DNA of 64,000 nucleotides from a virus (Duplodnaviria > Caudoviricetes), in IMG/VR virus record IMGVR_UViG_3300037483_000352, positions 1 to 64,000 of that record; one strand, written 5' to 3'. This document shows positions 1,573-28,247 of this stretch, in pieces. A model generated the notes under the pieces. That model did not search any database and had not been told where the DNA came from. It worked only from the letters and a program-made list of their open reading frames with translations. The position numbers and the translations under genes are program-made. Each line of letters opens with the position of its first letter. The stretch's first letter is position 1.

Positions 1573-2150
1573 AGCCCGGCCGCCTTTCGGATCAAGTACT
1601 CAGCAGCCGCCTTGAGCATGTCCGGGTTGTCCTCGAAATGGCCGATGCCTTGATTGCAGTGGTGGCAGAGCACGCCCCGGATCTTTCCCGTTACGTGATC
1701 GTGGTCAACAGCTTGGGCCGGTTGATCACAGATCTCGCACGTCCTACCGGTGCGCAGTGCCCTGGCTTGAGTGATCGTGAGGCCGTGGCCCCGCCGACCT
1801 TGAGCCTTCCGGAACATGTGCGCGCCGTTCCGGCACTTTCCATCAGACGTCAGGGTGACGGGGCCGCACCACACGCACACGCATGTACGGGTAGTCGGAT
1901 CTTTGCTGATCAACCGGTGAGCAAACCCGGATTTGATCTTCACCGGACCCCGGCATTGGTTGTAAACACCGTAGATCCGAACAGTGGACCGACAGCGATC
2001 ACACCACCCGCGTTGGCGCCTGGCATAGACCACACTGACCGGATGTACTTTGTCTTTAGCCCTGGCGCAGGCGGGACTACAGAACCGGGTCCTGGAGTCA
2101 GCCGAATCAACGGGCTCCCCGCATCCCGCCTCACACAGTTTCTTGGTCAT
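1569..2150 (-). CDS. recombination endonuclease VII domain protein with Cys-rich N-terminus
   Basis: C-terminal CEIC...VDHDHVTGKIRGVLCHHCNQGIGHFEDNPDMLKAAAEYL is the endonuclease VII signature; ATG at 2150 overlaps the polymerase stop. Confidence 0.85.
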   Translation of the reverse strand: MTKKLCEAGCGEPVDSADSRTRFCSPACARAKDKVHPVSVVYARRQRGWCDRCRSTVRIYGVYNQCRGPVKIKSGFAHRLISKDPTTRTCVCVWCGPVTLTSDGKCRNGAHMFRKAQGRRGHGLTITQARALRTGRTCEICDQPAQAVDHDHVTGKIRGVLCHHCNQGIGHFEDNPDMLKAAAEYLIRKAAGL

Positions 2151-4024
2151 TTCTCTGAGATCGCCCCCCAGCTCGGACCCGGGCCCGCCAGGTCGCACAA
2201 GATCGGCACGTTCTGCCACTCCCACGTAAAAGCCGCCCGAATGTCCTCGCCAACCCTTTCAGCATCCGCTTCGGGGACCATGAACACGAACTCGTCGTGC
2301 GCGTGACCTACCAAGTACGGGATGTACTCTGGGTGTCGATCAATCAAGATCAACAACACTTCGCAGGTAATATCGCGCGCCGTCCCCTGTCCCATGAGGG
2401 CCGGAGCGACGGTGTAGGCCGACTGGGGAGCGCAACGCATCTTGCGGCCGAAACCGTTGTCCAAGTATTCGCCGTCCATGCCCTGCTCGCGGATCTCCTC
2501 GCGCCACTCACAGAGCCTCGGGAATCGCCTCTCCATTCCGTTGACGAAAGCCCACACCACCTGAGGATCAGCGCCCTCGCGGATCATGCGCTTGGCGCCC
2601 AGGCCGTAGTTCCATCCGTGGCCGCGCGCCTTGGCCTCCTGGCGCGGGATGCCCAGCATGTCCGCGATCAGTTGGTGCGCGTCCTTCTGGGTACCGTCGT
2701 CCTCCCACCCGAAGAGGTCCATGTACGCCCGGTCCTGGCTGTGCCCGGCCACAGCGCGCATGTCGACCTGTGCGAGGTCGCAGGAGATCACTACGTACCC
2801 GGGAAGACCAATAAAGATCTCCCGTTCGACGTGCCTCCCGGCATGCTTGCCGTACACCGTCATGCCCGGTTTGGTGACCGACCACCGGCCGGACGCCTGC
2901 CGCATAGACACCACGGGGTGCACCCGGCCGTCAGGGGCCAGGTTGTTCATGGCGGTTTGGTAGACCGTCCGGGTCGTCGTGACGATGGTCACCAGGTCGC
3001 ACAGGCGCTGCAAGTCAACCAGGCCCAGCTTGGTGACATAGTGAGCGATGATCTTTTCCATGCCCTCGCGCCCGGCCGCGATGTCCTTGATCTCCTGGCC
3101 GGTGACCGGGTGCGTGATCTTGTTCTTGTCGACCTTGGGGTAGTGCTTGGCCCCCAGGTCCCACAGAGCCTTGATCAACGCGTCTTTACCAGCCCTGGTC
3201 GCCAGGGGTGCCTTGGACGGGATCCAATGCTCGGTCTTGTTCGGCTTACGGCCCCTCAGGACCGTGGCGCCCAGGGGGATGCCGTACGCCTCACTCAGCT
3301 CAGCAAGGGCCGCCTGCTTGCGTGCCTCGCCCTCCTTGATCCTCGTTTCCAACAGGGGGACGTCCACTGGGAAGCCCGTCAGGGTCATGTGCCCGGCCAG
3401 GGTCAGCAACTTGTGCTCACGGCGCCCGTAGGTGGTCATGGGGAGCCGTCCGGCCACCTGGTAGGACGCCTGGACGTCCTGCGCAAGGTAGGCCCGGTAG
3501 TCGGGATCGTCCAGCGGGATCCGGTCGTACCCGTCGTGCCGCCGCTTCAGGGCCGCGAGACCGTTCTCACCAGTGATCTTTCCTTCGACCCCGAGCCGCA
3601 GGGCGACATGGTCAAGGTCGTAGTGGTCCTCGGAGCCGTGTTCGCGTGAGCGGGGCGGGGTGTGCTGCCGGGACAGCGGGTCGGTGTCATGTGCCTTGGC
3701 GGCGAACATGGCCCACCAGGTGTGGCGGTCATCCACAGGGATGTGGTGCCAGGCCAGCGCGAGGCCGTCGAACCCCATGATGTTATGGCCGGTGACCACG
3801 TCGGCCGTACCGATCTCCGACAGCAAGTCATCCATGTTCGTGGTGATCACCACGGGACCGTCGTTGATCTTATATCCGGCGATCCGGCAGAAGTCCCCTT
3901 CCACCGGCCGCGCGTTGTCCTTACCGGCGTCCACGATGCCGGTGAACATCGAATCAGCACTGGCGGTTTCAAGGTCGAATGTCAGCGTCCGCAGGGCGCC
4001 GAAGGTGGCTTCAGGACTACTCAT
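2147..4024 (-). CDS. DNA polymerase, family A, with 3'-5' exonuclease domain
   Basis: ExoI FDLET, ExoII GHNIMGFD, ExoIII YLAQD; motif A DLAQVDMR, motif B RQEAKARGHGWNYG, motif C HDE. Confidence 0.93.
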   Translation of the reverse strand: MSSPEATFGALRTLTFDLETASADSMFTGIVDAGKDNARPVEGDFCRIAGYKINDGPVVITTNMDDLLSEIGTADVVTGHNIMGFDGLALAWHHIPVDDRHTWWAMFAAKAHDTDPLSRQHTPPRSREHGSEDHYDLDHVALRLGVEGKITGENGLAALKRRHDGYDRIPLDDPDYRAYLAQDVQASYQVAGRLPMTTYGRREHKLLTLAGHMTLTGFPVDVPLLETRIKEGEARKQAALAELSEAYGIPLGATVLRGRKPNKTEHWIPSKAPLATRAGKDALIKALWDLGAKHYPKVDKNKITHPVTGQEIKDIAAGREGMEKIIAHYVTKLGLVDLQRLCDLVTIVTTTRTVYQTAMNNLAPDGRVHPVVSMRQASGRWSVTKPGMTVYGKHAGRHVEREIFIGLPGYVVISCDLAQVDMRAVAGHSQDRAYMDLFGWEDDGTQKDAHQLIADMLGIPRQEAKARGHGWNYGLGAKRMIREGADPQVVWAFVNGMERRFPRLCEWREEIREQGMDGEYLDNGFGRKMRCAPQSAYTVAPALMGQGTARDITCEVLLILIDRHPEYIPYLVGHAHDEFVFMVPEADAERVGEDIRAAFTWEWQNVPILCDLAGPGPSWGAISEK

Positions 4025-5700
4025 ACGGACTCTCCGGGCAGTCGTCGATCACCAGCATGTCCCGGGGACGGACGGACACCGTCACCCCGGTACTGATCCA
4101 GTAGCCTCCGTCATCCTCGCCGTGCCGGGCCAGGCCGACCCGGACCTTCCCCCAGAACCCATAGCCCACCACCAGCCCGATGTGCAGCGCCGGGCGGGTC
4201 CGGCCGAGACGGCCGAACCACACCACAGCGTCACCGTGCTCGATGGACACGCCCCGGGTGTCCACGCTCATCGGGGGCCGTCCTCGTCGCCAGCCCAGAT
4301 GACAATCTTCTTGTGCTCGGCGACCAGCTTGATCAGCTCGTCGGCGTCGTCCACACCACAGGCCGCCAGGCCCTGGATGAACGCCAGCAGTCGGTGATCG
4401 TCATAGCTGATCTCGTACCCGGAGTTGTACTCCCAGTGATCATCGAACAGGTAGGACTCCAGCTTGAACATCAGGTCGGTGCCGAGCTGGTTGTCAACCG
4501 GGGGAGGCGGCACCGGCCGCCAGTGCATGGACCGGCTCATGCGTGCCTCCCTGAGGGGCCGTGAGCACGGTCACACTGCCGGTTCATGCACTCAGCGGGG
4601 ATCTCGTCCACCGGGTCGCCCACAGGCCGCGAGACGGCCGCTGACGGCCCCGGGACATCCGTGTCGTACCCCAGGGTCTGGATCTCCCGAATGGTGTCCT
4701 GGACAGCCCCCATGATCCCGTACAGCAGCCCCGCGCGTAGCGGGTCGGCCTCCACTCCGTACATGCCGTTGATCTTCTCGTGCAGGCCGGTCAGGGCGCC
4801 CGTTACGATCTTGGTGGCATCGGCTCGCGCCACCGTGCGGATGTGCTCTTCGCGCATGCCATCCCAGGGAACGATCATGACCGGCCCGCCGACCGGTAGC
4901 GCTGGATGGTGATCGTCTGGGGCTCGAAGCCCTTGTCCAGCTTGGACAGGAGCTGTGCGAACTGACCGTGGTACTCGCTGCCGATCTTCACGACCGCCAC
5001 CGACGTGCCGTACGGGTTGTAGTTGTTGCCCTCGGTCCAGGCGAAGTCGCCGACCTCCAGGTCCCCCACACCGGGCGCCACGGCGTACGCGTAGGTGCGT
5101 CCGTTGCCCCCGGGGAACCTGACCTGGACGATCTGCCGCCCGTGCTCGTCCCGCTCCCTGAAGGGGCCTTTGCTGCCTGCCATGATCAGCCTTCCTCTCG
5201 CAAGAACGAATCGATGCCGTTCCTGATCAGTACGAAGAACTCCCCCAGGGCCGAGGCGGTGTCGGGGGACAGGTTCGCGATCTGCCGGGCGCCAGCCTCA
5301 GGCAGTTCGACGTGGACACTGACCCGGCATCCGGGGAGGGACACCGGAATCAGCAAGTTGACGGTCCGGGCGGATCCGGGTTCCGGACGGGCATCGTTCT
5401 GGTCGTAGGGCTTGTAGGGGAAGGTCATCACTGCCTCCGGTACGGGTCGTTGGGGACCCCGGCGTTGCGCAGGTCGCCGGGGGAGTTGAGGACCACGGAG
5501 CTGACGTCCCACAAACAGACCGGACGGTCCACCACCCACCCGACCCCCAGCACTTCCGGGCGTCCGTCCAGGGTCACCGCGCGAAGCCACACGGACGCCA
5601 GAGCGCCTTGGACGGCGGGGCCGGGGGAATCGGTCACCTCGAACGCCATAGCCACGTAGGCGCCCTCCGGGGGCACCAGGAGACGCGGTGTGCCGGTCAT
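4017..5700 (-). other. six small hypothetical genes (4017-4271, 4268-4540, 4537-4878, 4875-5183, 5186-5428, 5428-5700)
   Basis: Head-to-tail ORFs with 1-8 nt overlaps or gaps and phage-like composition; no family recognised. Confidence 0.55.
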
Positions 5701-5981
5701 CGGGGCCTCTTTCCGCCACGGGGCCACGCGCGAGGGCGCGGCGGGTCGTACGACTTGCGGACAGCATCGCGTGCGCGGTCCATGCCGTCGCGAGCCACGT
5801 CCGTCAGAGTGAACGACCCGTCCTTGTCGGTGATCCACCCGTTGGACTCAAGCCGGTCGATCACCGGCCACAGGGCCGGGAAGCTGATGTTGGTGTCCGC
5901 GCTGATCTCCAGCCCTGTGGCCGGAGACTTGGCCAGCCTCTCGACCACCCGGCGGACCTTTCGGGTCACTCGGACACTCAC
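5697..5981 (-). CDS. winged helix-turn-helix (PadR/MarR-like) DNA-binding protein
   Basis: GTG start at 5981; ATGLEISADTNISFPALWPVIDRLESNGWI...SFTLTDVAR fits the wHTH pattern. Confidence 0.6.
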   Translation of the reverse strand: MSVRVTRKVRRVVERLAKSPATGLEISADTNISFPALWPVIDRLESNGWITDKDGSFTLTDVARDGMDRARDAVRKSYDPPRPRAWPRGGKRPR

Positions 5982-6190
5982 AGCCGGTGATCCTTGTCGT
6001 AGGCGGCCTCGCGGTTGTGCGGCAGGGACAGGACCACCCTCAGGGTCCTCAGCGTGCTCCGGAACGTCCCCTTGTACCTGACCACGTCGTCGTTGGTCCC
6101 GCCCTGCTGCCGGGCCAGTCGGCAGAAGGCCTCGATGTCCGAGAGGGTCATGTCCTCGTCCGTGGACAGCTCCACGGGCTTCCTGATCAC
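5978..6190 (-). CDS. hypothetical protein
   Basis: GTG at 6190, GTGA overlaps at both ends. Confidence 0.5.
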   Translation of the reverse strand: MIRKPVELSTDEDMTLSDIEAFCRLARQQGGTNDDVVRYKGTFRSTLRTLRVVLSLPHNREAAYDKDHRL

Positions 6191-6396
6191 TGGCTGGCCT
6201 CTGCGCCTGCAAACCAGTCGGCCAGGGCCCACCTGATCACTACGGACTGCGGGACGCCGTCCTTGGCTGCTGCCGCCCGGAGGGTGCTGAACATGGCCGG
6301 GGGGATGTCCGCGCCGATGTGGTGCCAGTCGGCGCGAGCCTCGCTCTTTCCGGTCCGCTTGGGTGTTCCGCTCTTTGATCGCATGTGATGAATCAT
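6187..6396 (-). CDS. ribbon-helix-helix (CopG/Arc-like) regulator
   Basis: HIGADIPPAMFSTLRAAAAKDGVPQSVVIRWALADW fits a beta-strand plus two-helix RHH pattern. Confidence 0.65.
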   Translation of the reverse strand: MIHHMRSKSGTPKRTGKSEARADWHHIGADIPPAMFSTLRAAAAKDGVPQSVVIRWALADWFAGAEASQ

Positions 6397-6496
6397 AACT
6401 CCATGTGGTGATCGTCGGGAGGCGATCTACAACCCCTTTTGGATCTTGCCGTGGAGATCTTTGATCAAGGTCCCTGGAGGTAAAGGATTCCCCATA

Positions 6497-6715
6497 GATG
6501 CACGTGCATGGAGCGCATCCCTAGCACTGCTAGTTGTAGTGTGAAGGGATGCAGGATGCACCAGGGATGCACCAGGGATGCACTTGATCTTTAAACACAT
6601 CCTGACCTGCGCTTAGTCCGCATCCCTCAGTGCATCCCTCCAGGGATGCACCGGGGATGCAGGGTGAGTGCATCCCTGCATCCCATCCCTGAAAGGGATG
6701 CGGGGGATGCACCCT
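6497..6715. repeat. iteron-like array of GGGATGC(A)/GCATCCC; candidate replication origin
   Basis: About a dozen copies in both orientations counted by eye, including tandem GCACCAGGGAT; non-coding; lies between the primase-helicase and RHH genes. Confidence 0.7.
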
Positions 6716-6741
6716 CGCTTCCTGATCTTCACTAGTCATGT

Positions 6742-8865
6742 TCATTCAAAACCGGCCGGGGCCTGATCGGGGTCGGTCCTGCCCCGGGCCTGACGTGCCG
6801 CATGGGCGTTCTGCCAGTCGACGCCCTTCCCCGTGATCGGCCCGCCGTTGTCCTTGAGCCATTCGCGCGCGGGGCGCTGCGCCAGGCTCATGGGGAGGCC
6901 GCGCTGATCCATTTCGCGGATGATCCGTTCGACGTTCGTCTCCGGGGTGCGGCTGTCCTCCGTGACCCACGTCGGCTCGTCACTGAAGGGGTCCGGCTCA
7001 CAGAACGCCGTATCCACGCGACCGGCCAGCCCCCCGGCGTCCACCTGTGACGTCATGACCGCCACGGCCAGCGTGCGGCCGTCCAGGTTGCCCAGCGACC
7101 CCCGGTTGTCCTTGCGCAGCACCAGCCGCGTCCGGCCGGTCGTGCCCGGCTTCAGCGTGACCACCTTGCACGCCTCGTACAGCGCCCCCTGGACGGCCTG
7201 CGCCTTACGGATGGACCCGTGCTGCCGTTCCTTGTTCTCGTGCCCCACGTGGTCCAGGAACAGCCCGCAGGCGCCGTTCAGGGTGAACGGCTGGAAACAT
7301 TCCTGGATCACCGTGTCGATGCCGCCGGGGTGGTACGGGTCCAGGTCGAACGACGTCACGGCCGGGTTGAGCGCGTCCAGGGTCACGAGCTTCGCCGCCT
7401 GGCGCACGGCCGCAGGCAGTACGTCCCGGCCGCTCTTGTCGTAGAGGACGTGCAGCCGGTTGCGGATGCCGTCCGGCTCCGCGTCCGCGTCGATCAGCCG
7501 CTTCACGATGGACATGATCGGGTTGTTGTCGAATTCCCAGTGGATCACCGTGCCCCCGGCGTTCAGCTCCCGGGCTTGCAGCTCGGCCAGGATGACGGTC
7601 TTGCCGACCGAGCCGTCCCCGAAGATCCCGTTGACGTGCCCCGGGTAGAACAGCCCCCACCCCTTGTCGTTGCCTTCGATCACCCCTACCGACGGAACGT
7701 CGAGCTGTGCGCCGCCGAGCAGCGCGTCAAGAGCGTCGCCCACGGTCAGGTTGCCGGACGTCCTCTGCTTGGCCTTGTGGTTGCGGACGATCTCCATTGC
7801 CTTTTCACGGCGCAGGATCCGCAGGGCCTCGACCCGGACCTCCCGGTGGACCTCCGGGCCGAACGTGGGTTCTCCTGTGTCCTGCTCCTCCTCGTCCTCG
7901 TACTCGTCGTCCTTGACGTCCTCGTCTGGCTCCGGGGTGTCCCGGACCGCAGTTTCCAGCAGGCTGCTGTGAGACCCGCTGAACTCATCGGGTCCGGCTT
8001 CCGGCTTGGCCGCCCACCACGCGTCCTCAAGCGCGTCGAACAGGGGACCGGCCGCCACCTTGCCGTAGGTGGACTCCCGGCATGCCCACCCCAGGGCCTT
8101 CAGCATCGAGTCGTGGCGGCATCCGTCCCGGGTGTCGAACCGGTCCAGGATGCGCTGTACAAGGTCGGGGTCAGACTCCCCGGTGTACCGCTGCCGGAAC
8201 TCCTTCACACCTAGACCGGCGCCCTCGTGGTACCCGCGCTGAGGCTTACTGAGGTGTTCCAGCCACGTGGCGGGTAGGTCTGCTATCAGGTCCAGCCGGG
8301 GCGGTGTGTCCGACCGCACGCCGTTGTACCAGGCATAGGTGTTGCCGGTCTTGGCGTGCACGGACGGCCAGACCATGGCGTACCGATGGTGGTGCTGGAT
8401 GACCTCTATGGACTCCGACAGTGATCCCCGCAGCTCTCCGCAGTCCTCGGGGACCCTGAAGAAGTAGATCCGCGACGGTCCGTCGCCGCGCGCCGTGGAA
8501 GACCATGTGGACGGGAGTGGACCGAGATCGTTTTCCAGCTCCTTGAGATCATCTGCGCCGTGCTTGTCGTCGTACTGGTCGATGTCGATGCCGATGACCC
8601 CGTAGGGCAGCCGCCACCCGATGTTGAAGTCCTTGAACTTGGGCAGCGCGTTGGGACCGGCGTAAAGCCTTGCTGGGGTCTGTATCCCCTTGCGGCCCGA
8701 CACCTTCCTGATCGCGATCGTCTTGGCCTTGTCACCCTGGGTGCGCACCGGAACCATGCCGGTGTACTCCAGGCGCGCGTACACCGGCACTCCGGTGCCG
8801 TACGGCCCGGAGGGCGGTGTCTCGTCCTCCGCAGGGCCCATGAGGAAGTCGGTGGCCGACGTCAT
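6742..8865 (-). CDS. bifunctional DNA primase/polymerase fused to a P-loop (RecA-like) helicase
   Basis: N-terminal prim-pol (NIGWRLPYGVIGIDID...RIYFFRVP...RYAMVWPSVH); C-terminal Walker A GDGSVGKT and LVTLDAL/FLDH motifs. Confidence 0.85.
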   Translation of the reverse strand: MTSATDFLMGPAEDETPPSGPYGTGVPVYARLEYTGMVPVRTQGDKAKTIAIRKVSGRKGIQTPARLYAGPNALPKFKDFNIGWRLPYGVIGIDIDQYDDKHGADDLKELENDLGPLPSTWSSTARGDGPSRIYFFRVPEDCGELRGSLSESIEVIQHHHRYAMVWPSVHAKTGNTYAWYNGVRSDTPPRLDLIADLPATWLEHLSKPQRGYHEGAGLGVKEFRQRYTGESDPDLVQRILDRFDTRDGCRHDSMLKALGWACRESTYGKVAAGPLFDALEDAWWAAKPEAGPDEFSGSHSSLLETAVRDTPEPDEDVKDDEYEDEEEQDTGEPTFGPEVHREVRVEALRILRREKAMEIVRNHKAKQRTSGNLTVGDALDALLGGAQLDVPSVGVIEGNDKGWGLFYPGHVNGIFGDGSVGKTVILAELQARELNAGGTVIHWEFDNNPIMSIVKRLIDADAEPDGIRNRLHVLYDKSGRDVLPAAVRQAAKLVTLDALNPAVTSFDLDPYHPGGIDTVIQECFQPFTLNGACGLFLDHVGHENKERQHGSIRKAQAVQGALYEACKVVTLKPGTTGRTRLVLRKDNRGSLGNLDGRTLAVAVMTSQVDAGGLAGRVDTAFCEPDPFSDEPTWVTEDSRTPETNVERIIREMDQRGLPMSLAQRPAREWLKDNGGPITGKGVDWQNAHAARQARGRTDPDQAPAGFE

Positions 8866-8994: not shown

Positions 8995-9648
8995 TTAGGA
9001 GCGGGCGGACCCAGGGGATTCCCCGTGCTCGAACCGGGCCGACCGGGCAGCGTCGTACGCGGCGTGGATACGCGGCCACCAGGTGTCGTGATCTTTCTGG
9101 AGCATGCTCCCCCATGACCCCCGGAGAAACCATTGGATCATCCGAGGTGCGGTGAGGGACGGGTCTTGATCTGCTATGCAGAGGTCATCCCACGCGCCCC
9201 CGTCATGTGCGATCACTGGACTGTTCGTGGTCATCAACGGACATTGACCACTGCCCGCTAGATCCCACGGCAGCGCGTGCAGGTACCCCTTGTGCAGATG
9301 CAGGCGGGTGGGCACCCGGTCGCTCTGCACCATGTACCCGTCCGGCAGGCGGCTCGGGCGAGGAAGCCGCCCGAACACGATCAGGTCCCCGCCCTCTCCG
9401 TCGGAGAGGCCGACGGCGGAACGCAGGATCTTCGTCAGGTCATGTTCTGTGATCTCCCCTTTCACCTCCCCGTAGATCTTCAGGTCCGGGAACCAGAAGT
9501 CCGGCAGGTAGTACCCGTGAGGGAGATCGAATCCCTCGTGTTCGTACTCCCATGCGATGCCCAGGTGATCGAAGAACACCGCGTAACGCGCCTCCAGGCG
9601 GCTGCGGAACCGGCACCCCGCGTAGCGGGTCTCAATGGCTTTGATCAT
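8995..9648 (-). CDS. PD-(D/E)xK-like phage nuclease family protein
   Basis: MIKAIETRYAGCRFRSRLEARYAVFFDHLGIAWEYE..GF...YLPDFW...YGEVKG, a common phage PD-(D/E)xK pattern. Confidence 0.7.
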   Translation of the reverse strand: MIKAIETRYAGCRFRSRLEARYAVFFDHLGIAWEYEHEGFDLPHGYYLPDFWFPDLKIYGEVKGEITEHDLTKILRSAVGLSDGEGGDLIVFGRLPRPSRLPDGYMVQSDRVPTRLHLHKGYLHALPWDLAGSGQCPLMTTNSPVIAHDGGAWDDLCIADQDPSLTAPRMIQWFLRGSWGSMLQKDHDTWWPRIHAAYDAARSARFEHGESPGSARS

Positions 9649-23871: not shown

Positions 23872-24369
23872 ATGCTGACCATGACCTTGGCAGGCGGACA
23901 CGACCACGTGGTCACGCCCGGGGACCTGGAAAGGTTCTGGGTGAAGGTCGACAAGTCGGGTCCCGTCCCGCCTGCGAGGCCAGATCTCGGGCCGTGCTGG
24001 TTGTGGACAGCAAAGATCAATCAGTACGGGTACGGGGATTTCGGGCTCCGGTCGCGGTTGGTGAAAGCTCATCGACTCAGCTATACGATCTTGGTCGGCA
24101 GCATTCCGGACGGCTTGACGTTGGACCACTTGTGCCGCGTTCGAAACTGCGTGAACCCCCGTCATCTGGAAGCCGTCACCCAGCGCGTGAACACGCTCCG
24201 AGGTGACGGGTTCGCGGCTGATCACGCTGCCAAGACCAAGTGCCCGAATGACCATCCGTACGACGAAGCCAACACCTACGTGAGCAATGTCAACGGGAGG
24301 CACTGCCGTACCTGCCACAGGGACCGCGAACGAGCCCGTAAGAGGGAGATCAGGAAGAGGGGTGAGTGA
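23872..24369 (+). CDS. HNH endonuclease
   Basis: RFWVKVDK...CWLWTA...GYG...KAHRLSY...LDHLCRVRNCVNPRHLEAVTQRVN. Confidence 0.92.
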   Translation: MLTMTLAGGHDHVVTPGDLERFWVKVDKSGPVPPARPDLGPCWLWTAKINQYGYGDFGLRSRLVKAHRLSYTILVGSIPDGLTLDHLCRVRNCVNPRHLEAVTQRVNTLRGDGFAADHAAKTKCPNDHPYDEANTYVSNVNGRHCRTCHRDRERARKREIRKRGE

Positions 24370-25469
24370 CCATGTCGGATCGGCGCGGTACCCCGGCGTA
24401 CGTGCAGCGGATCATCACCGCCATTGCAGGTGTCTTGACGGTCTTCCTGACGGCCGTGGCGTTCTGGCTATCATTTGAGCACCTGCACGACGTGGCCGCC
24501 GACCATGGTCTGTCGGGGGTCCGCGCGTGGGCATGGCCTGCCACCCTGGACACGTTCATCGTGATCGGTGAGGTGCTGATCCTCCGCGCGTCGATCGTCC
24601 AGAAGGTGGACGCCTGGGCGTGGTGCTGCGCGGCAGCCGGGTCCCTCGGTTCGATCACGCTCAACGTGGTCGGGGTCGGGGCCGACGCCGGGGCGCTGGA
24701 CTACACCGTCGCCGCCGTTCCTCCGGTGGCCGCGCTGTTCGCCTTCGGGATCCTGATGCGTCAGTTGCACCAGGCGCTCGCGTCGTACATGACCAAGGCC
24801 GACCCGGTGGACGTCATCGCTGGTGCGTTCGATGTCCCCCGGGACCTGATCATGGGAGACGCCGATGGGGGTCCGGAGCCTGAGTACGACGCGTCAGGAC
24901 TGCCGGTCAACGATCGTCCTGGGGACGAGGAAACGACCGGCATGGACGCCGGTATCGGCTACCTCCGGGGGACACCGATCGACGTGTCCGACGCCGTTGT
25001 CCCGGGCGCTTGGGACGAAGAGATGCGTGCCCGGCTGGCATCCCTGCCGGACGCGTCCTTGTCCCTGGACCTGACTCCGTACCCGGTCTACGCGGACAGT
25101 GTCCCCGCGCGGCCGACCGTGGCCCCGGTCAACGGGACACCCCGGCCGGGACATGTCCCGGACAGGGGACACGGGGACACAGCCGCGCGGGGACAGACGG
25201 CCGTCTCCCGGCCTGTCCCCGGGACAGGGGACACGGATGCCGGGGACATGGGGACAGGCCCCGGACAGTCCCGGACAGTCCCGGACAGTCCCGGACAGCG
25301 CCGGACACGGGCCGCCCGGACAGGTCTCACCCAGCGGGTCAGGGACATGTTGGAGATCAACCCCGGTATGACCAACGAGGACGTCCGGGACGCGTGTCCC
25401 GGCGACAACCCGGACAGCGTCAAGAAGTCGATCAGCCGGGTAAGGAGGGAGCTGGGCGAGACAAGCTGA
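24366..25469 (+). CDS. DUF2637-like membrane protein (Streptomyces plasmid Spd-type) with repeat linker and C-terminal HTH-like region
   Basis: AFWLSFEHLHDVAA..GL...AWAWPATLD...SITLNV...VAAVPPVAALF, four predicted TM segments; PDSPGQSRTV repeats. Confidence 0.8.
   Translation: MTMSDRRGTPAYVQRIITAIAGVLTVFLTAVAFWLSFEHLHDVAADHGLSGVRAWAWPATLDTFIVIGEVLILRASIVQKVDAWAWCCAAAGSLGSITLNVVGVGADAGALDYTVAAVPPVAALFAFGILMRQLHQALASYMTKADPVDVIAGAFDVPRDLIMGDADGGPEPEYDASGLPVNDRPGDEETTGMDAGIGYLRGTPIDVSDAVVPGAWDEEMRARLASLPDASLSLDLTPYPVYADSVPARPTVAPVNGTPRPGHVPDRGHGDTAARGQTAVSRPVPGTGDTDAGDMGTGPGQSRTVPDSPGQRRTRAARTGLTQRVRDMLEINPGMTNEDVRDACPGDNPDSVKKSISRVRRELGETS
25090..25420. repeat. dense GGGACA/CCGGACAG repeat tract, including (CCGGACAGTC)x3
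   Basis: About 20 GGACA copies by eye in ~330 bp inside the CDS. Confidence 0.85.
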
Positions 25470-25524
25470 CGGACCCCGGGGGCACCGCGCCCCACATGAT
25501 CGAACCTGAGCGAGAGGCACCATC

Positions 25525-26013
25525 ATGGCGACACCGCCTGTAGCACCGGCCAAGAAGGCCACCACACCGCGCAAGACCACCACCGGCGGATCCCGCCCCG
25601 TGCCCGAGGATTCCGGACCGGTGTCCAGCGGCAGCGACAAGCTTGACGCTCTCGTCCGCGCGCTGGACGACGTGGAGCTGTCCGACCAGCACTCGCTGAA
25701 CGCCTTCTGCGAGGCGCTCCGCAAGCTGGCCAGCCGCCTGGCCGTGGAGACCGCCATCGGATCCGGGCAGCTCACGGCCGGAGCCAAGGTCATGGCCAAG
25801 GGCACCGGTAACCCGCTGCTCATGGGCCTGGACGTCCGGCTCAAGATGCGCAAGGTCACCAAGGCACTGGACTCCGCGAGTGACCACCTCGGGGACGCCG
25901 CAGCCCAGGCCGTCACGGCATGGTCCGTGTTCGAGGCCGAGTTCGAAGAAGCCCTGAACAAGTCGGCCCGGAAGGCCGCCACCCCCAGGGGCTTCACGAT
26001 CAAGGAGGACTGA
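25525..26013 (+). CDS. plasmid transfer protein, TraA-like
   Basis: SLNAFCEALRKLASRLAVE...RLKMRKVTKALDSASDHLGDAAAQAVTAWSVFEAEF; lies immediately upstream of traB, as on Streptomyces plasmids. Confidence 0.65.
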   Translation: MATPPVAPAKKATTPRKTTTGGSRPVPEDSGPVSSGSDKLDALVRALDDVELSDQHSLNAFCEALRKLASRLAVETAIGSGQLTAGAKVMAKGTGNPLLMGLDVRLKMRKVTKALDSASDHLGDAAAQAVTAWSVFEAEFEEALNKSARKAATPRGFTIKED

Positions 26014-26015
26014 CC

Positions 26016-28061
26016 ATGGGCAGGCAGGGCGTCCGACGTGGACCAGTGAGGACCCGGGGGTTCGGGCTCGGAGAGCTGGCAGGCTCCCGTGTGCTCCCGT
26101 ACCTGGTGCCCTGGCTGCTGTGCGTCCTGGCCATGCCGGTCGCCCTGCTTGCCCGCTGGCGCTGGGGGGACGACCCCCGGATGACGGCGGTCATGGGGGC
26201 TACGGCCGTGTTCCTGTCCGGCATGACGTATGTCACCTGGGGACGCCGCCACCGGCACACCCGGAACACGGCGACCCTGGTTGCCGGGGTCGTCCTCGGG
26301 TGGACAGCCGTTGCTGTGTCCGGGGATCCGTTGTCCCGGGGGACACTGGACGCGTGGATCATCGGGACAGTCATCGTGTCTGTCTCCTGGGATGTCCGGT
26401 ACGCAGCATGGTCTGTCCCCCACGAGGAGGACAAGTCGGGGGACAACGAAGATCCTTTGTTCAGCCGGATCAAGTCCCTGAACGGCGCGAGGACAAAGAA
26501 GATCAAGGAGACACCTGGACGGGTCGAGGCGCAGATCCGGCTGAAGCCCGGGGAGCACACGATGTCCGAGGTCCAGGGGGACAAAGAGCGGATAGCTCAG
26601 ATCGTCGGCATGGGGACAGAGGACATCACGGTGACCGGTGTCCCGGGACACGCGGACACCGTGACCATGTCCTTCCAGTTCGCCAACGGGCTGCGCCGGT
26701 CGATCTACTGGAACGGCCCGTCCATGGCCGGTGGCTCGGTCTATGACGCGCCCCTGCGGCCGGGCATCCGGGCGGACGGAAAGGATCTGGCCCTATGGCT
26801 GTGCGGGGACAGCTCCGCAGACCCCGTGCGGCAGCTCACCCATTGCCTGGCTACCGGGGTGACCGGATCCGGCAAGACGGAGACGGTGAAGACCGTGATC
26901 CTGGACGGCCGGTGGCGCCGGGACTTCGTTCCGATCGTCGCCGACCCGGCCAAGTTCAATCAGTCGTTCGGGGACATCAAGGAGTGCCTGGAGCTGTACG
27001 CGGACGGTCCGGAACAATGCGCCCGGCTGGTCCGTAATCTGAAGGACACGATCCTGTACCGCGCACAGATCTTCGGGGAGCTGACCAGGTCGGACGGCAC
27101 CCAGGGCTACTCACAGTGGGAGCCGGAGCTGTGGACCCTGCACGGCATCCCCCTGGTTTTCATCGACCTGGAGGAGGCCGCCGACCTGGTGGACTCCGAT
27201 CTCGATGATCCGGTCCGTAAGGCCCGGTCAGTCGGGATCTTCCTGTGGGTGTCGCTTCAGACGGCGATCTTCCAGAACCTGGACCGCAAGACCCGGGGGC
27301 AGTTCGGGCAGTCCGCGTGCCACGGAATGAACGAGATGCAGGACGCCAAGTTCGGACTGAACGCCAACACGATCAACGCCGGGGCCGACCCCACGAAGTG
27401 GGGAGCGGACAGCGCGGGATCTTTCTACGCGGAGTTCACCGGGACACCGAAGAACGAATGGCCGGTGGATGCGCGTGCGTACGCCTGGGGACGCAACGAG
27501 TCCGAAGCCAGGCAGGCCCGGCGCGCGGAGATGACGGCGTCCCGGGACGCGGGTGTCTGGGCTGTCCTGGACGAGGGGACATCCGACTATCTGTCCCGTG
27601 GGCTGTCTGTCCCCTGCGGGGACACAGCCGCTGTCCCCTGCGGGGACACCACGACTGTCCCTGTCCCGGGGGACACGGGGGCGGGATACACCGCGACTGT
27701 CCCGGCAGGGGACAACGAGGACAAGATCACCCAACTGAAGGAAAGGCCCGAAGTGACACAGGAGATCGCACCCCCGAAGCACGACGTCGTGTTCTCCCTG
27801 GGTGTCCCCCAGAACGACGTGACCACCGAGCAGGCACGGAAGATCATCGAGGACAGGATCGACGAGATGGAGGCCGGTGGCCGGGACATGGTGGGCTACC
27901 GGGACATTGCCGACCTGGCCGCCAAGTGCGGACGCCGCCGGTCGTGGCTGTACAAGGAACTGGCGCGGCTGGTCGAGGCCGGACGGCTGGAGCAGGGGGT
28001 GAAGCCGCCATACCGGATCAAGCCCCGTATCCAGAACGGGCACCGGGTTCCGGTGAGCTGA
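26016..28061 (+). CDS. traB: TraB-like FtsK/SpoIIIE conjugative DNA translocase
   Basis: N-terminal TM segments, Walker A GVTGSGKT, Walker B IDLEEA, VSLQTA, C-terminal wHTH (GRRRSWLYKELARLVEAGRL). Confidence 0.88.
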   Translation: MGRQGVRRGPVRTRGFGLGELAGSRVLPYLVPWLLCVLAMPVALLARWRWGDDPRMTAVMGATAVFLSGMTYVTWGRRHRHTRNTATLVAGVVLGWTAVAVSGDPLSRGTLDAWIIGTVIVSVSWDVRYAAWSVPHEEDKSGDNEDPLFSRIKSLNGARTKKIKETPGRVEAQIRLKPGEHTMSEVQGDKERIAQIVGMGTEDITVTGVPGHADTVTMSFQFANGLRRSIYWNGPSMAGGSVYDAPLRPGIRADGKDLALWLCGDSSADPVRQLTHCLATGVTGSGKTETVKTVILDGRWRRDFVPIVADPAKFNQSFGDIKECLELYADGPEQCARLVRNLKDTILYRAQIFGELTRSDGTQGYSQWEPELWTLHGIPLVFIDLEEAADLVDSDLDDPVRKARSVGIFLWVSLQTAIFQNLDRKTRGQFGQSACHGMNEMQDAKFGLNANTINAGADPTKWGADSAGSFYAEFTGTPKNEWPVDARAYAWGRNESEARQARRAEMTASRDAGVWAVLDEGTSDYLSRGLSVPCGDTAAVPCGDTTTVPVPGDTGAGYTATVPAGDNEDKITQLKERPEVTQEIAPPKHDVVFSLGVPQNDVTTEQARKIIEDRIDEMEAGGRDMVGYRDIADLAAKCGRRRSWLYKELARLVEAGRLEQGVKPPYRIKPRIQNGHRVPVS

Positions 28062-28069
28062 CCATGGTC

Positions 28070-28157
28070 CGTCCGGGGGACGTCCAGATCATCGGGCGTC
28101 CCTCGTCCGGGGGATGTTCCGTTTCGTCCACCGTCCCTCGTCCGGGGGATTGTTCCG
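28070..28157 (+). repeat. three CGTCCGGGGGA direct repeats downstream of traB; candidate clt
   Basis: Copies at 28070, 28104 and 28139; the last two extend to CGTCCCTCGTCCGGGGGAT(T)GTTCCG. Confidence 0.6.
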
Positions 28158-28247
28158 GAACAGATCACATCTCCCACCTAGGTATATCCGTGCGGAACAC
28201 GCCGCACGTCCACGGTCCGCGTCCAGCGGGCACCCAAGGAGACAACC

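Follow-up and report, generated by a model that had tools for sequence, protein, structure and literature searches.

Short copies of the word GGGACA and its complement TGTCCC crowd the transfer genes in the DNA analyzed here, a 64,000-nucleotide stretch (the window) of an 88-kb replicon, and the question is what maintains them there and which protein reads them. The window's element carries capsid, portal and terminase genes and is a Streptomyces-type phage-plasmid. How Spd proteins engage DNA during mycelial spreading is a standing question in work on Streptomyces conjugation; the known activities of SpdB2 include DNA binding, pore formation and contact with TraB. The SpdB2 of pSVH1, an oligomeric protein of the membrane, is required for spreading, interacts with TraB and binds dsDNA in a manner reported to be nonspecific; homologues have been noted on plasmids and actinophages (PMC4447253). 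A first-pass annotation had proposed that the genes double as a multi-kilobase cis-acting locus read either by TraB or by the helix-turn-helix (HTH) of a DUF2637 protein. We consider it somewhat more probable than even (roughly 0.55) that the copies form putative docking sites for the latter, holding DNA at the membrane beside TraB.

A selected word within the transfer genes

The SpdB2-like membrane protein gene (24366 to 25469, plus strand, 367 amino acids; Pfam DUF2637, E=1.9e-12) encodes an N-terminal DUF2637 region with four hydrophobic helices, counted by eye in the translation, then a low-complexity linker and a C-terminal HTH. Downstream lie a traA-like gene (25525 to 26013, plus strand, 162 amino acids), whose match to NCBIfam plasmid_TraA (E=4.6e-13) is below the curated cutoff, and traB (26016 to 28061, plus strand, 681 amino acids), encoding an FtsK-like conjugative dsDNA translocase with the Walker A motif GVTGSGKT. 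The gene order is that of pWTY27, whose gene is named SpdB2-like (PMC3583192); our assignment to SpdB2 was made through DUF2637 and this gene order. The match of traB to NCBIfam plasmid_TraB (NF041214; E=2.5e-110, covering residues 24 to 670 of 681) scores 370 bits, less than the 800-bit equivalog cutoff, and the protein is 24 to 38% identical to TraB from Streptomyces plasmids, among them pJV1, pSN22 and pWTY27. Judged by these matches, the window's TraB is a divergent member of the plasmid TraB family.

When GGACA/TGTCC (mostly GGGACA) was counted in 500-bp windows across the replicon, three stretches alone passed a Poisson threshold of p<1e-3 and no further enriched window was present, which agrees with the earlier impression that the motif is sparser elsewhere. 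Block 1 (24801 to 25469) holds 28 copies, 18 of them GGGACA, on both strands and in every codon phase, where the SpdB2-like gene codes for its linker. Block 2 (26301 to 26700; 18 copies) covers traB codons ~96 to 228, encoding the final membrane helix and the linker that leads to the motor, and block 3 (27561 to 27730; 13 copies) falls in the hypervariable linker that joins the TraB motor to the winged helix. The copies use both strands, and the block densities of 42, 45 and 77 GGACA per kb, against a background of 3.8, amount to an ~12-fold enrichment. They are discrete, with ~59 to 60 GGACA cores in a total of ~1.2 kb spread over 2.9 kb, so that "multi-kilobase" was an overstatement. The finer features described in the first-pass annotation were recovered: the ~20 GGACA at 25090 to 25420 (counted as 19 GGACA plus 4 TGTCC), the tandem triplet of CCGGACAGTC (starting at 25261, 25271 and 25281), the palindrome GGGACATGTCCC (25148), the inverted pair TGTCCCCTGCGGGGACA occurring twice near 27605 to 27650 (at 27608 and 27632, in block 3), and the low-complexity peptides GQSRTVPDSPGQ and VPCGDTAAVPCGDT encoded within the DUF2637 and traB frames. 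The many further copies that it placed at 26200 to 26670 were likewise present. GGGACA/TGTCCC occurs 40 times in 24900 to 27800 (expected 2.7) versus 79 times in the remaining 85 kb, and GGGGACA 23 times inside that interval and 22 times outside. The traB motor region and the traA-like gene are at background density; the latter has no GGGACA and two GGACA (the chance of two or fewer at its neighbors' density is 5e-4), and in every relative traA has few copies of the motif (none or one in the seven loci counted).

The codon correction called for in the first-pass annotation, made by synonymous-codon shuffling, gave 18 copies observed versus 4.1 +/- 1.7 in the DUF2637 gene and 26 versus 6.1 +/- 1.9 in traB; none of 2000 shuffles attained the observed value. 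The copies occupy all three codon phases. Gly-Thr dipeptides are written GGG-ACA in 9 of 11 cases in the two array genes versus 0 of 168 cases outside them, across the remainder of the replicon, and ACA accounts for 25% of Thr codons in the array genes versus 7% elsewhere. At conserved residues of block 2, the window locus and its 79% relative have GGG ACA and other relatives have GGT ACC, GGC ACG and the like, and the word is retained where flanking residues differ between the window and one relative, L004. The extended consensus is c-S-G-GGACA (cSGGGACA), ~8 bp with an asymmetric GGACA core; the base 3' of this core is not conserved, and TGTCCA accounts for 2 of 71 copies. Helical phasing of the sites was considered and rejected, as the spacings show only a multiple-of-3 bias and some preferred inverted pairs (GGACATGTCC and TGTCC-N4-GGACA). 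The motif is under DNA-level selection within coding sequence and is real and local. Limited to the transfer module, it behaves like a cis-acting protein-binding array.

Covariation of the motif with the upstream HTH

In the search for relatives, an alignment query returned 27 loci; a single-protein scan of viral contigs returned none, and a pattern search of genome and metagenome contigs gave nothing useful because the patterns (Walker A) were too generic. One JGI contig has 71% TraB identity. Of 33 loci with a TraB 36 to 81% identical to the window's, about 25 carry a GGACA-type array in the membrane-protein gene upstream of traA-traB, at 27 to 48 GGACA per kb versus 3 to 7 in the flanks, and the two strands are used about equally. 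The same architecture extends across a large family of ~60- to 98-kb actinobacterial phage-plasmid-like elements and to pWTY27, pJV1 and pSN22.

The upstream protein ends in a predicted three-helix HTH (coding region 25302 to 25466, plus strand; predicted recognition helix DSVKKSISRVRREL), which we propose as the array reader. AlphaFold2, run on a 22-sequence alignment, placed helices at 14 to 26, 32 to 38 and 44 to 57 (core pLDDT ~88), and Foldseek returned weak matches that were all HTH DNA-binding domains, none significant. A helix pattern, [DN][ST][ILV]xK[AS]IxR, is kept in the GGACA-type loci, and exchange of the HTH goes with exchange of the motif, the other types being GCGAAAGC, GCTGAGCC and GAGACG. 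The upstream proteins of L001 and L028 are 79% identical in the N-terminus versus 28% in the C-terminus, and one of the two has a GCGAAAGC array where the other has a GGACA-type array. On a homologous scaffold, L001, L023 and L031 have three HTH types with arrays of GCGAAAGC, GGGACA and GAGACG, each multi-frame and on both strands. Conversely, the window, L004 and L008 have a common HTH type and motif despite unrelated N-terminal membrane domains (26 to 32% identity). A Mantel comparison of array k-mer profiles gave a rho of 0.67 (partial 0.55) with the upstream HTH versus 0.25 (partial 0.11) with the TraB C-terminus. Across these loci, the motif tracks the C-terminal HTH cassette and follows neither the TraB winged helix nor the repeats after traB; block 1 itself lies within the gene of this HTH, its putative reader. 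The first-pass annotation's second option, the HTH of the DUF2637 protein, is the better supported of its two. In L002, GGACTGCC was considered as an alternative motif and rejected, being only a 12 x 15-bp PAVPV tandem repeat; because this repeat is plain and confined to one phase and one strand, we regard L002 as a case of array loss rather than of motif switch.

Repeats after traB and alternative readers

Directly 3' of the traB stop lies a noncoding repeat set (28062 to 28165, no strand assigned) with three copies of CGTCCGGGGGA (28070, 28104 and 28139), TGTTCCG at 28115 and the palindrome TGTTCCGGAACA at 28151 to 28162; the gap from 28062 to 28247 contains no GGACA. Relatives have TGTTCG/TGTTCC, four to eight (G)TGTCAGA, six TGTCACGG or CTGATCAGA at the same place. 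This set is a candidate for the true clt of the window, in contrast to the array blocks, which are coding and start 1.2 kb upstream of traB. In pWTY27, the clt consists of four TGACACC repeats directly after traB that are bound by its TraB homologue, and the tra gene with 175 bp of clt sufficed for transfer (PMC3583192). The clt of pJV1 is nine CCGCACASS after traB. The SpdB2/DUF2637 gene of pWTY27 holds a different word, 15 CGCGAAC in two frames that yield AREQ and ANT peptides, and the SpdB-like gene of pJV1 holds 16 GCTCAC(G), the same embedded motif as in pSN22; for both pWTY27 and pJV1, experimental mapping placed clt at the post-traB set, and the array in the SpdB2-like gene is a different motif. 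The post-traB repeats correlate weakly with the TraB C-terminus (0.28, partial 0.07), and it is their position and the pWTY27 and pJV1 precedents, rather than covariation, that suggest TraB as their reader.

Could the GGACA copies themselves be TraB recognition sequences, making the genes an extended clt that loads TraB hexamers through the C-terminal winged helix? TraB proteins do recognize short 7- to 9-bp repeats near traB (PMC4447253, PMC3583192), and ~59 cores of an array of such words are clustered within or beside traB here. Of the three blocks, 2 and 3 are internal to traB, block 3 in its 3' third, and the array word TGTCCCG is one base off the post-traB TGTTCCG, so TraB could read both sets. 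A winged helix is predicted at the TraB C-terminus (27798 to 28058, plus strand; recognition helix RRSWLYKELARLV), where AlphaFold2 gave an H-beta-H-H-beta-beta order, the best Foldseek matches were IclR, ArsR, GntR and DtxR winged helices (probability up to 0.99, E>=0.03) and sub-threshold Pfam matches were to AbiEi_4 and TrmB. We nevertheless regard this explanation as unlikely. Between L001 and L028 the TraB recognition helix is almost unchanged (GRSRVWVYDELERL and GRSRGWVYDELERL), the TraB C-terminus is 78% identical and the post-traB repeats are shared, yet the arrays are unrelated; most GGACA-type relatives lack enrichment in traB (2.6 to 6 GGACA per kb); and the low partial correlation with the TraB C-terminus, the mapped clt loci of pWTY27 and pJV1 and the sufficiency of the 175-bp clt in pWTY27 all speak against it. 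Of the earlier proposal of a cis-acting locus, the selected array in the transfer module stands, and TraB is probably not its reader: the motif follows the upstream HTH, and the usual clt position is occupied by other repeats.

A third party, either a small regulator encoded nearby that restrains traB expression as a kil-kor type brake or roadblock, or a conserved DNA-binding protein of the host, is a still less probable reader. Without regulation traB is toxic, and TraR/KorA-type proteins normally repress it (PMC4447253); relatives have weak TrmB/MarR-like HTH genes a few genes upstream, and the GGACA core persists in very divergent elements, much as sps is conserved among plasmids (PMC4170104). 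Some of the small neighboring genes, including an annotated HTH protein (L001:706-987), also differ between the cassette-swapped loci. The HTH-motif covariation is confounded by linkage because array and HTH lie within a few hundred bases of one gene, and a cassette exchange would move both even with another protein as reader. On the other hand, known TraR operators are a few 12- to 14-bp promoter repeats, not 30 to 60 coding sites (PMC4447253). The motif changes in exact step with the HTH encoded in the same gene, with at least three cassette types on one scaffold, and a host factor leaves element-specific motifs unexplained. The last explanation denies any DNA-level function and treats the words as by-products of low-complexity linker peptides and tandem-repeat slippage; the blocks do encode disordered, repetitive peptides, the CCGGACAGTC triplet is a short tandem repeat and L002 has its plain PAVPV repeat in the same place. 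It is largely refuted by the codon tests, and we give it very little credence: the excess over shuffles and the use of both strands, all phases and rare codons argue against it, the word survives changes in neighboring residues, and the same word encodes different peptides by frame in the window, pWTY27 and pJV1.

Several other kinds of site were rejected. The Streptomyces DnaA box has the consensus TTGTCCACA, and the copies are not DnaA boxes because TGTCCA is so rare among them; WhiA sites contain GACAC, which is not the conserved core here given the variable base 3' of GGACA. An RNA-level signal was rejected in view of the near-equal strand use across relatives. A pac or terminase site was rejected, as the array lies ~47 kb from the terminase gene and also occurs in plasmid pS1D4-14.2, in which the window's terminase has no match.

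Proposed docking at the membrane and related systems

If the SpdB2-like HTH is the reader, the binding-site arrays would be overprinted on low-constraint linker codons of the SpdB2-like gene and traB, and the most likely partner would be the C-terminal domain of the protein encoded at 24366 to 25469. As a membrane-embedded and putatively oligomeric protein, it could bind many sites at once and thereby keep the DNA of the element close to the TraB pore, at the membrane or septal cross-wall, where it would serve conjugative transfer or mycelial spreading; TraB would load separately, at 28062 to 28165. We offer a broader proposal more tentatively, at slightly less than even odds: SpdB2-type proteins may be sequence specific, and a swappable cassette of HTH and array (15 to 60 cognate sites) may constitute a second cis locus of Streptomyces-type conjugation beside clt. 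Its sites would be overprinted on disordered-linker codons of the protein's own gene and, in the window's element, of traB, and the locus would anchor plasmid or phage DNA at the membrane translocation complex and determine which DNA spreads through the mycelium.

The clt/TRS loci of pSVH1, pJV1, pWTY27 and pIJ101 (54-bp clt) resemble the array in being short, element-specific words clustered at transfer genes, and they act in cis through recognition by an HTH-type domain that belongs to a transfer protein, as the array probably does. The pSVH1 TRS is reportedly an 8-bp repeat. Known clt loci have three to nine copies in ~50 to 200 bp, mostly noncoding and at the 3' end of traB, whereas the array has ~60 copies in three coding blocks on both strands, without TraB covariation. 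KOPS with FtsK-gamma and SRS with SpoIIIE-gamma also pair an 8-bp word with a winged helix on an FtsK-family pump; those words are strand polarized and chromosome-wide, and the window's array is local, on both strands and probably not read by the pump. Noc-NBS, RacA-ram and ParB-parS likewise use many copies of a short site to recruit DNA to an envelope-associated protein, but they are unrelated chromosomal systems with longer palindromic sites that are not packed into the reader's own gene. SpdB2 of pSVH1 resembles the window's protein as an integral membrane protein of about four helices encoded beside traA and traB; its reported nonspecific binding differs from the sequence-specific HTH with its own array that we propose here.

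A close parallel is sps/SpdA2 of pIJ101, in which a spread-module protein binds sites in its own coding sequence, as is putatively the case here; the sps sites impose a peptide motif on SpdA2, and that study removed them by synonymous recoding (PMC4170104). The sps site differs from the asymmetric GGACA in being a 12-bp palindrome, CGTCACGTGACG, present in one to three copies and conserved across plasmids, and its phenotype is segregational stability, not transfer (PMC4170104). SpdA2 is small and soluble and has its DNA-binding domain at the N-terminus, unlike the window's protein, which has a membrane domain and a C-terminal HTH and is not of the SpdA type. We found no published description of such an array, nor, in the accessible papers, of a cognate site array for SpdB2. 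If our reading is correct, the site array in the spdB2-like gene is a concrete cis element for recoding, the odd low-complexity linkers are explained as overprinted DNA signals, and one coding sequence holds two layers of information. As transfer modules also occur on phage-like elements, the same device may aid the passage of phage genomes from one hyphal compartment to another. For annotation, such arrays provide a simple sequence signature of transfer and spread modules that can be separated from the true clt.

The transfer module and its embedded array

The replicon that carries the window is one 88,083-bp contig, and its transfer region consists of three genes in the same orientation. The SpdB2-like gene (24366-25469, plus strand) encodes a 367-aa protein in which a DUF2637 membrane domain (E=1.9e-12) is joined through a low-complexity linker to a short C-terminal domain. 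It is followed on the plus strand by a TraA-like gene (25525-26013; NCBIfam plasmid_TraA, E=4.6e-13, below cutoff) and by traB (26016-28061), a full-length match to NCBIfam plasmid_TraB (E=2.5e-110) with the Walker A motif GVTGSGKT and a score of 370 bits against the curated cutoff of 800. TraB is 24-38% identical to Streptomyces plasmid TraBs, those of pJV1, pSN22 and pWTY27 among them, and pWTY27 has an identical gene order, its first gene having been named SpdB2-like by the authors (PMC3583192). Elsewhere on the replicon (64-88 kb, fetched as L037 and L038, and window 2147-8865) are genes for an 851-aa capsid-protease fusion, a portal, a large terminase with 42% identity to Rhodococcus phage terminases, a DNA methyltransferase, a DNA polymerase and a primase. 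Given that capsid-protease, portal, terminase, polymerase and primase genes are present and that the source record is classed as viral, we consider the element, by its gene content, to be phage-like and to bear a Streptomyces-type conjugation module. Papers that cite pZL12 describe it as a Streptomyces plasmid-phage. An HNH endonuclease gene at 23872-24369 extends into the beginning of the SpdB2-like gene and may be a mobile insertion, because counterparts of this gene and of the two genes upstream of it are absent from the 70% relative L002.

The first-pass annotation had described GGGACA/TGTCCC as crowded into this module and sparser elsewhere; every string that it quoted was found in the sequence, and the local enrichment was confirmed, with 40 copies in 24900-27800 (2.7 expected) compared to 79 across the remaining 85 kb. 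GGGGACA has 23 copies within this interval and 22 beyond it, and an alignment of all copies yielded a word of about 8 bp, c-S-G-GGACA. A Poisson k-mer scan of the whole replicon returned only three enriched stretches: block 1 (24801-25469, both strands) with 28 GGACA cores at 42 per kb, block 2 (26301-26700) with 18 at 45 per kb, and block 3 (27561-27730) with 13 at 77 per kb. The background is 3.8 per kb, and the 5' half of the SpdB2-like gene, traA, the traB motor region and the post-traB gap all lie at or below it. The enrichment in the transfer module was upheld, though as three blocks and not as a continuous field.

Both strands carry copies of the word, which fall in each of the three codon phases. 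The enrichment withstood codon correction by within-gene synonymous-codon shuffling, which gave 4.1 +/- 1.7 copies for the SpdB2-like gene (18 observed) and 6.1 +/- 1.9 for traB (26 observed); 0 of 2000 shuffles reached the observed counts, and resampling by replicon-wide codon usage lowered the expected counts still further. Gly-Thr is written GGG-ACA at 9 of 11 sites in the two array genes compared to 0 of 168 in other genes, and ACA makes up 25% of Thr codons in the array genes compared to 7% elsewhere. Conserved Gly-Thr sites of TraB read GGG ACA in this element and in its 79% relative, and GGT ACC, GGA ACC or GGC ACG in more distant relatives. Selection acts at the DNA level on the array. 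The blocks fall on the least conserved protein segments, which are probably disordered, and overprinting a DNA signal on these variable segments carries the least protein cost.

Arrays in related elements

More than 200 TraB homologues were found, mostly on 60-98-kb contigs, and we sampled 33 loci, window included, measuring k-mer enrichment in each module against its own flanks without a preset motif. The upstream membrane-protein gene contained 27-48 GGACA per kb in about 25 of the 33 loci, compared to 3-7 in the flanks, with G, C or A preferred as the base flanking the core; one relative has 50 GGGACA in this gene. Enrichment within traB was limited to a subset, namely this element (20 per kb), L004, L008, L006, L019, L024 and L033. 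The TraA-like gene was poor in the motif throughout, with at most one copy in each of seven loci where it was counted on its own. Other words occupy the same site in plasmid pS1D4-14.2 (L001; GCGAAAGC), in L017 (GCTGAGCC) and in L031 (GAGACG), and these arrays likewise run in several frames and on both strands, above synonymous shuffles. Judged from these comparisons, the array is a family trait centered on the upstream membrane-protein gene.

At the site of its relatives' GGACA array, L002 has 12 tandem repeats of 15 bp encoding PAVPV (about 9036-9215), and the C-terminal domain of its upstream protein is also of a different type. We considered its word as an alternative array motif and rejected it; since the word is a plain tandem repeat, L002 was counted as an array loss. 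In relatives, the DEAD-box helicase gene that precedes the module encodes the intein-type domains Hom_end_hint and LAGLIDADG (L002 1-2512; L006 1-325). Public collections file this element family both as virus and as plasmid: L025 (IMGVR_UViG_2917791510_000001), filed as viral in IMG/VR, matches L001 (NZ_CP041606.1), the linear Streptomyces plasmid pS1D4-14.2, both being 98,815 bp with identical motif counts and protein segments.

Repeats after traB and a probable clt locus

Directly 3' of the traB stop are CGTCCGGGGGA direct repeats at 28070, 28104 and 28139, 34-35 bp apart, and the same set (28062-28165) includes TGTTCCG and the palindrome TGTTCCGGAACA. At this site the relatives carry TGTTCG/TGTTCC, (G)TGTCAGA in 4-8 copies, TGTCACGG in six copies or CTGATCAGA. 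The interval 28062-28165 is probably the real clt, the cis-acting transfer locus read by TraB. A conserved box containing CCTAGG or CCTAAG follows the repeats in most relatives (window 28170-28185; L006, L007, L013, L014, L016 and L019) and may be the promoter of downstream small membrane-protein genes.

The clt repeat of pWTY27, TGACACC, is bound by TraB as published (PMC3583192) and maps directly after traB, as do the nine published CCGCACASS repeats of pJV1. The SpdB2-like genes of these plasmids carry embedded arrays of their own: 15 CGCGAAC in pWTY27 (L040 262-1359), in two frames that yield AREQ and ANT peptides; 16 GCTCAC(G) in pJV1 (L041 666-1781), spread over both strands and several frames; and GCTCACG, as in pJV1, in pSN22 (L042 5361-6444). 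All three exceed synonymous shuffles and differ from the mapped clt repeats. Given that pWTY27 transfer required no more than its tra gene and 175 bp of clt (PMC3583192), embedded arrays are distinct from clt in those systems with a known clt. The earlier idea that the array is a clt for TraB finds no support in pWTY27 and pJV1, where clt is the post-traB repeats and the array in the SpdB2-like gene has another word.

Candidate readers of the array

Two domains are candidate DNA-binding readers, the TraB C-terminus (about aa 595-681), predicted to form a winged helix (H-beta-H-H-beta-beta), and the C-terminus of the upstream protein (about aa 310-367), predicted to form a three-helix HTH (core pLDDT about 88). 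Fold searches with both matched only HTH/winged-helix DNA-binding domains, at E-values that were not significant, as expected for domains so small. We hypothesize, with a probability of roughly 55%, that the SpdB2-like protein reads the array through its HTH and that the DNA is held at the membrane beside TraB. The first-pass annotation had named the TraB translocase first and the DUF2637 HTH as its alternative; the TraB winged helix now seems an unlikely reader. Plasmid pS1D4-14.2 (L001) and its relative L028 share the N-terminal part of the upstream protein (79% identical), the TraB C-terminus (78%), a nearly identical TraB recognition helix and their post-traB repeats, but differ in the upstream-protein C-terminus (28% identical) and in the array, GCGAAAGC versus GGACA-type. 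On a common scaffold, L001, L023 and L031 combine three HTH types with three array words, and this element, L004 and L008 have the same HTH type and word despite unrelated membrane domains. Recognition helices with K[AS]I-Q/S/K may pair with GGGACA, and those with KAI-T/A with CGGACA. Across 27 loci, array k-mer profiles followed the upstream HTH (Mantel rho 0.67; partial 0.55, with TraB motor divergence removed) more than the TraB C-terminus (0.25; partial 0.11). These natural cassette swaps appear to tell the two candidates apart, with the caveat that array and HTH are linked: as they share the 3' half of a single gene, they would travel together anyway. A third party as reader is less likely still, and an array without function is very improbable beside the selection on its DNA. 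At the level of sequence, the array is selected, element-specific and coupled to the HTH cassette of the membrane protein whose gene neighbors those of TraA and TraB.

If the SpdB2-like protein is the reader, its oligomer would bind the array and keep element DNA at the membrane beside the TraB pore, an arrangement that would aid transfer or else spreading through hyphal cross-walls, and TraB would load at 28062-28165. This mechanism fits the published properties of SpdB2, which is membrane embedded and oligomeric, binds dsDNA, contacts TraB and is required for spreading, and which has known homologues on actinophages (PMC4447253). The DNA binding reported for SpdB2 of pSVH1 is, however, non-specific (PMC4447253), whereas the HTH would bind a specific sequence. 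Arrays of this kind are not described in the literature that we searched; the present analysis contributes the three-block anatomy with its spill-over into traB, the cassette-swap comparisons and the tie to plasmids with experimentally mapped clt. The SpdA2/sps palindromes offer a precedent for a spread-module protein with binding sites inside its own gene (PMC4170104).
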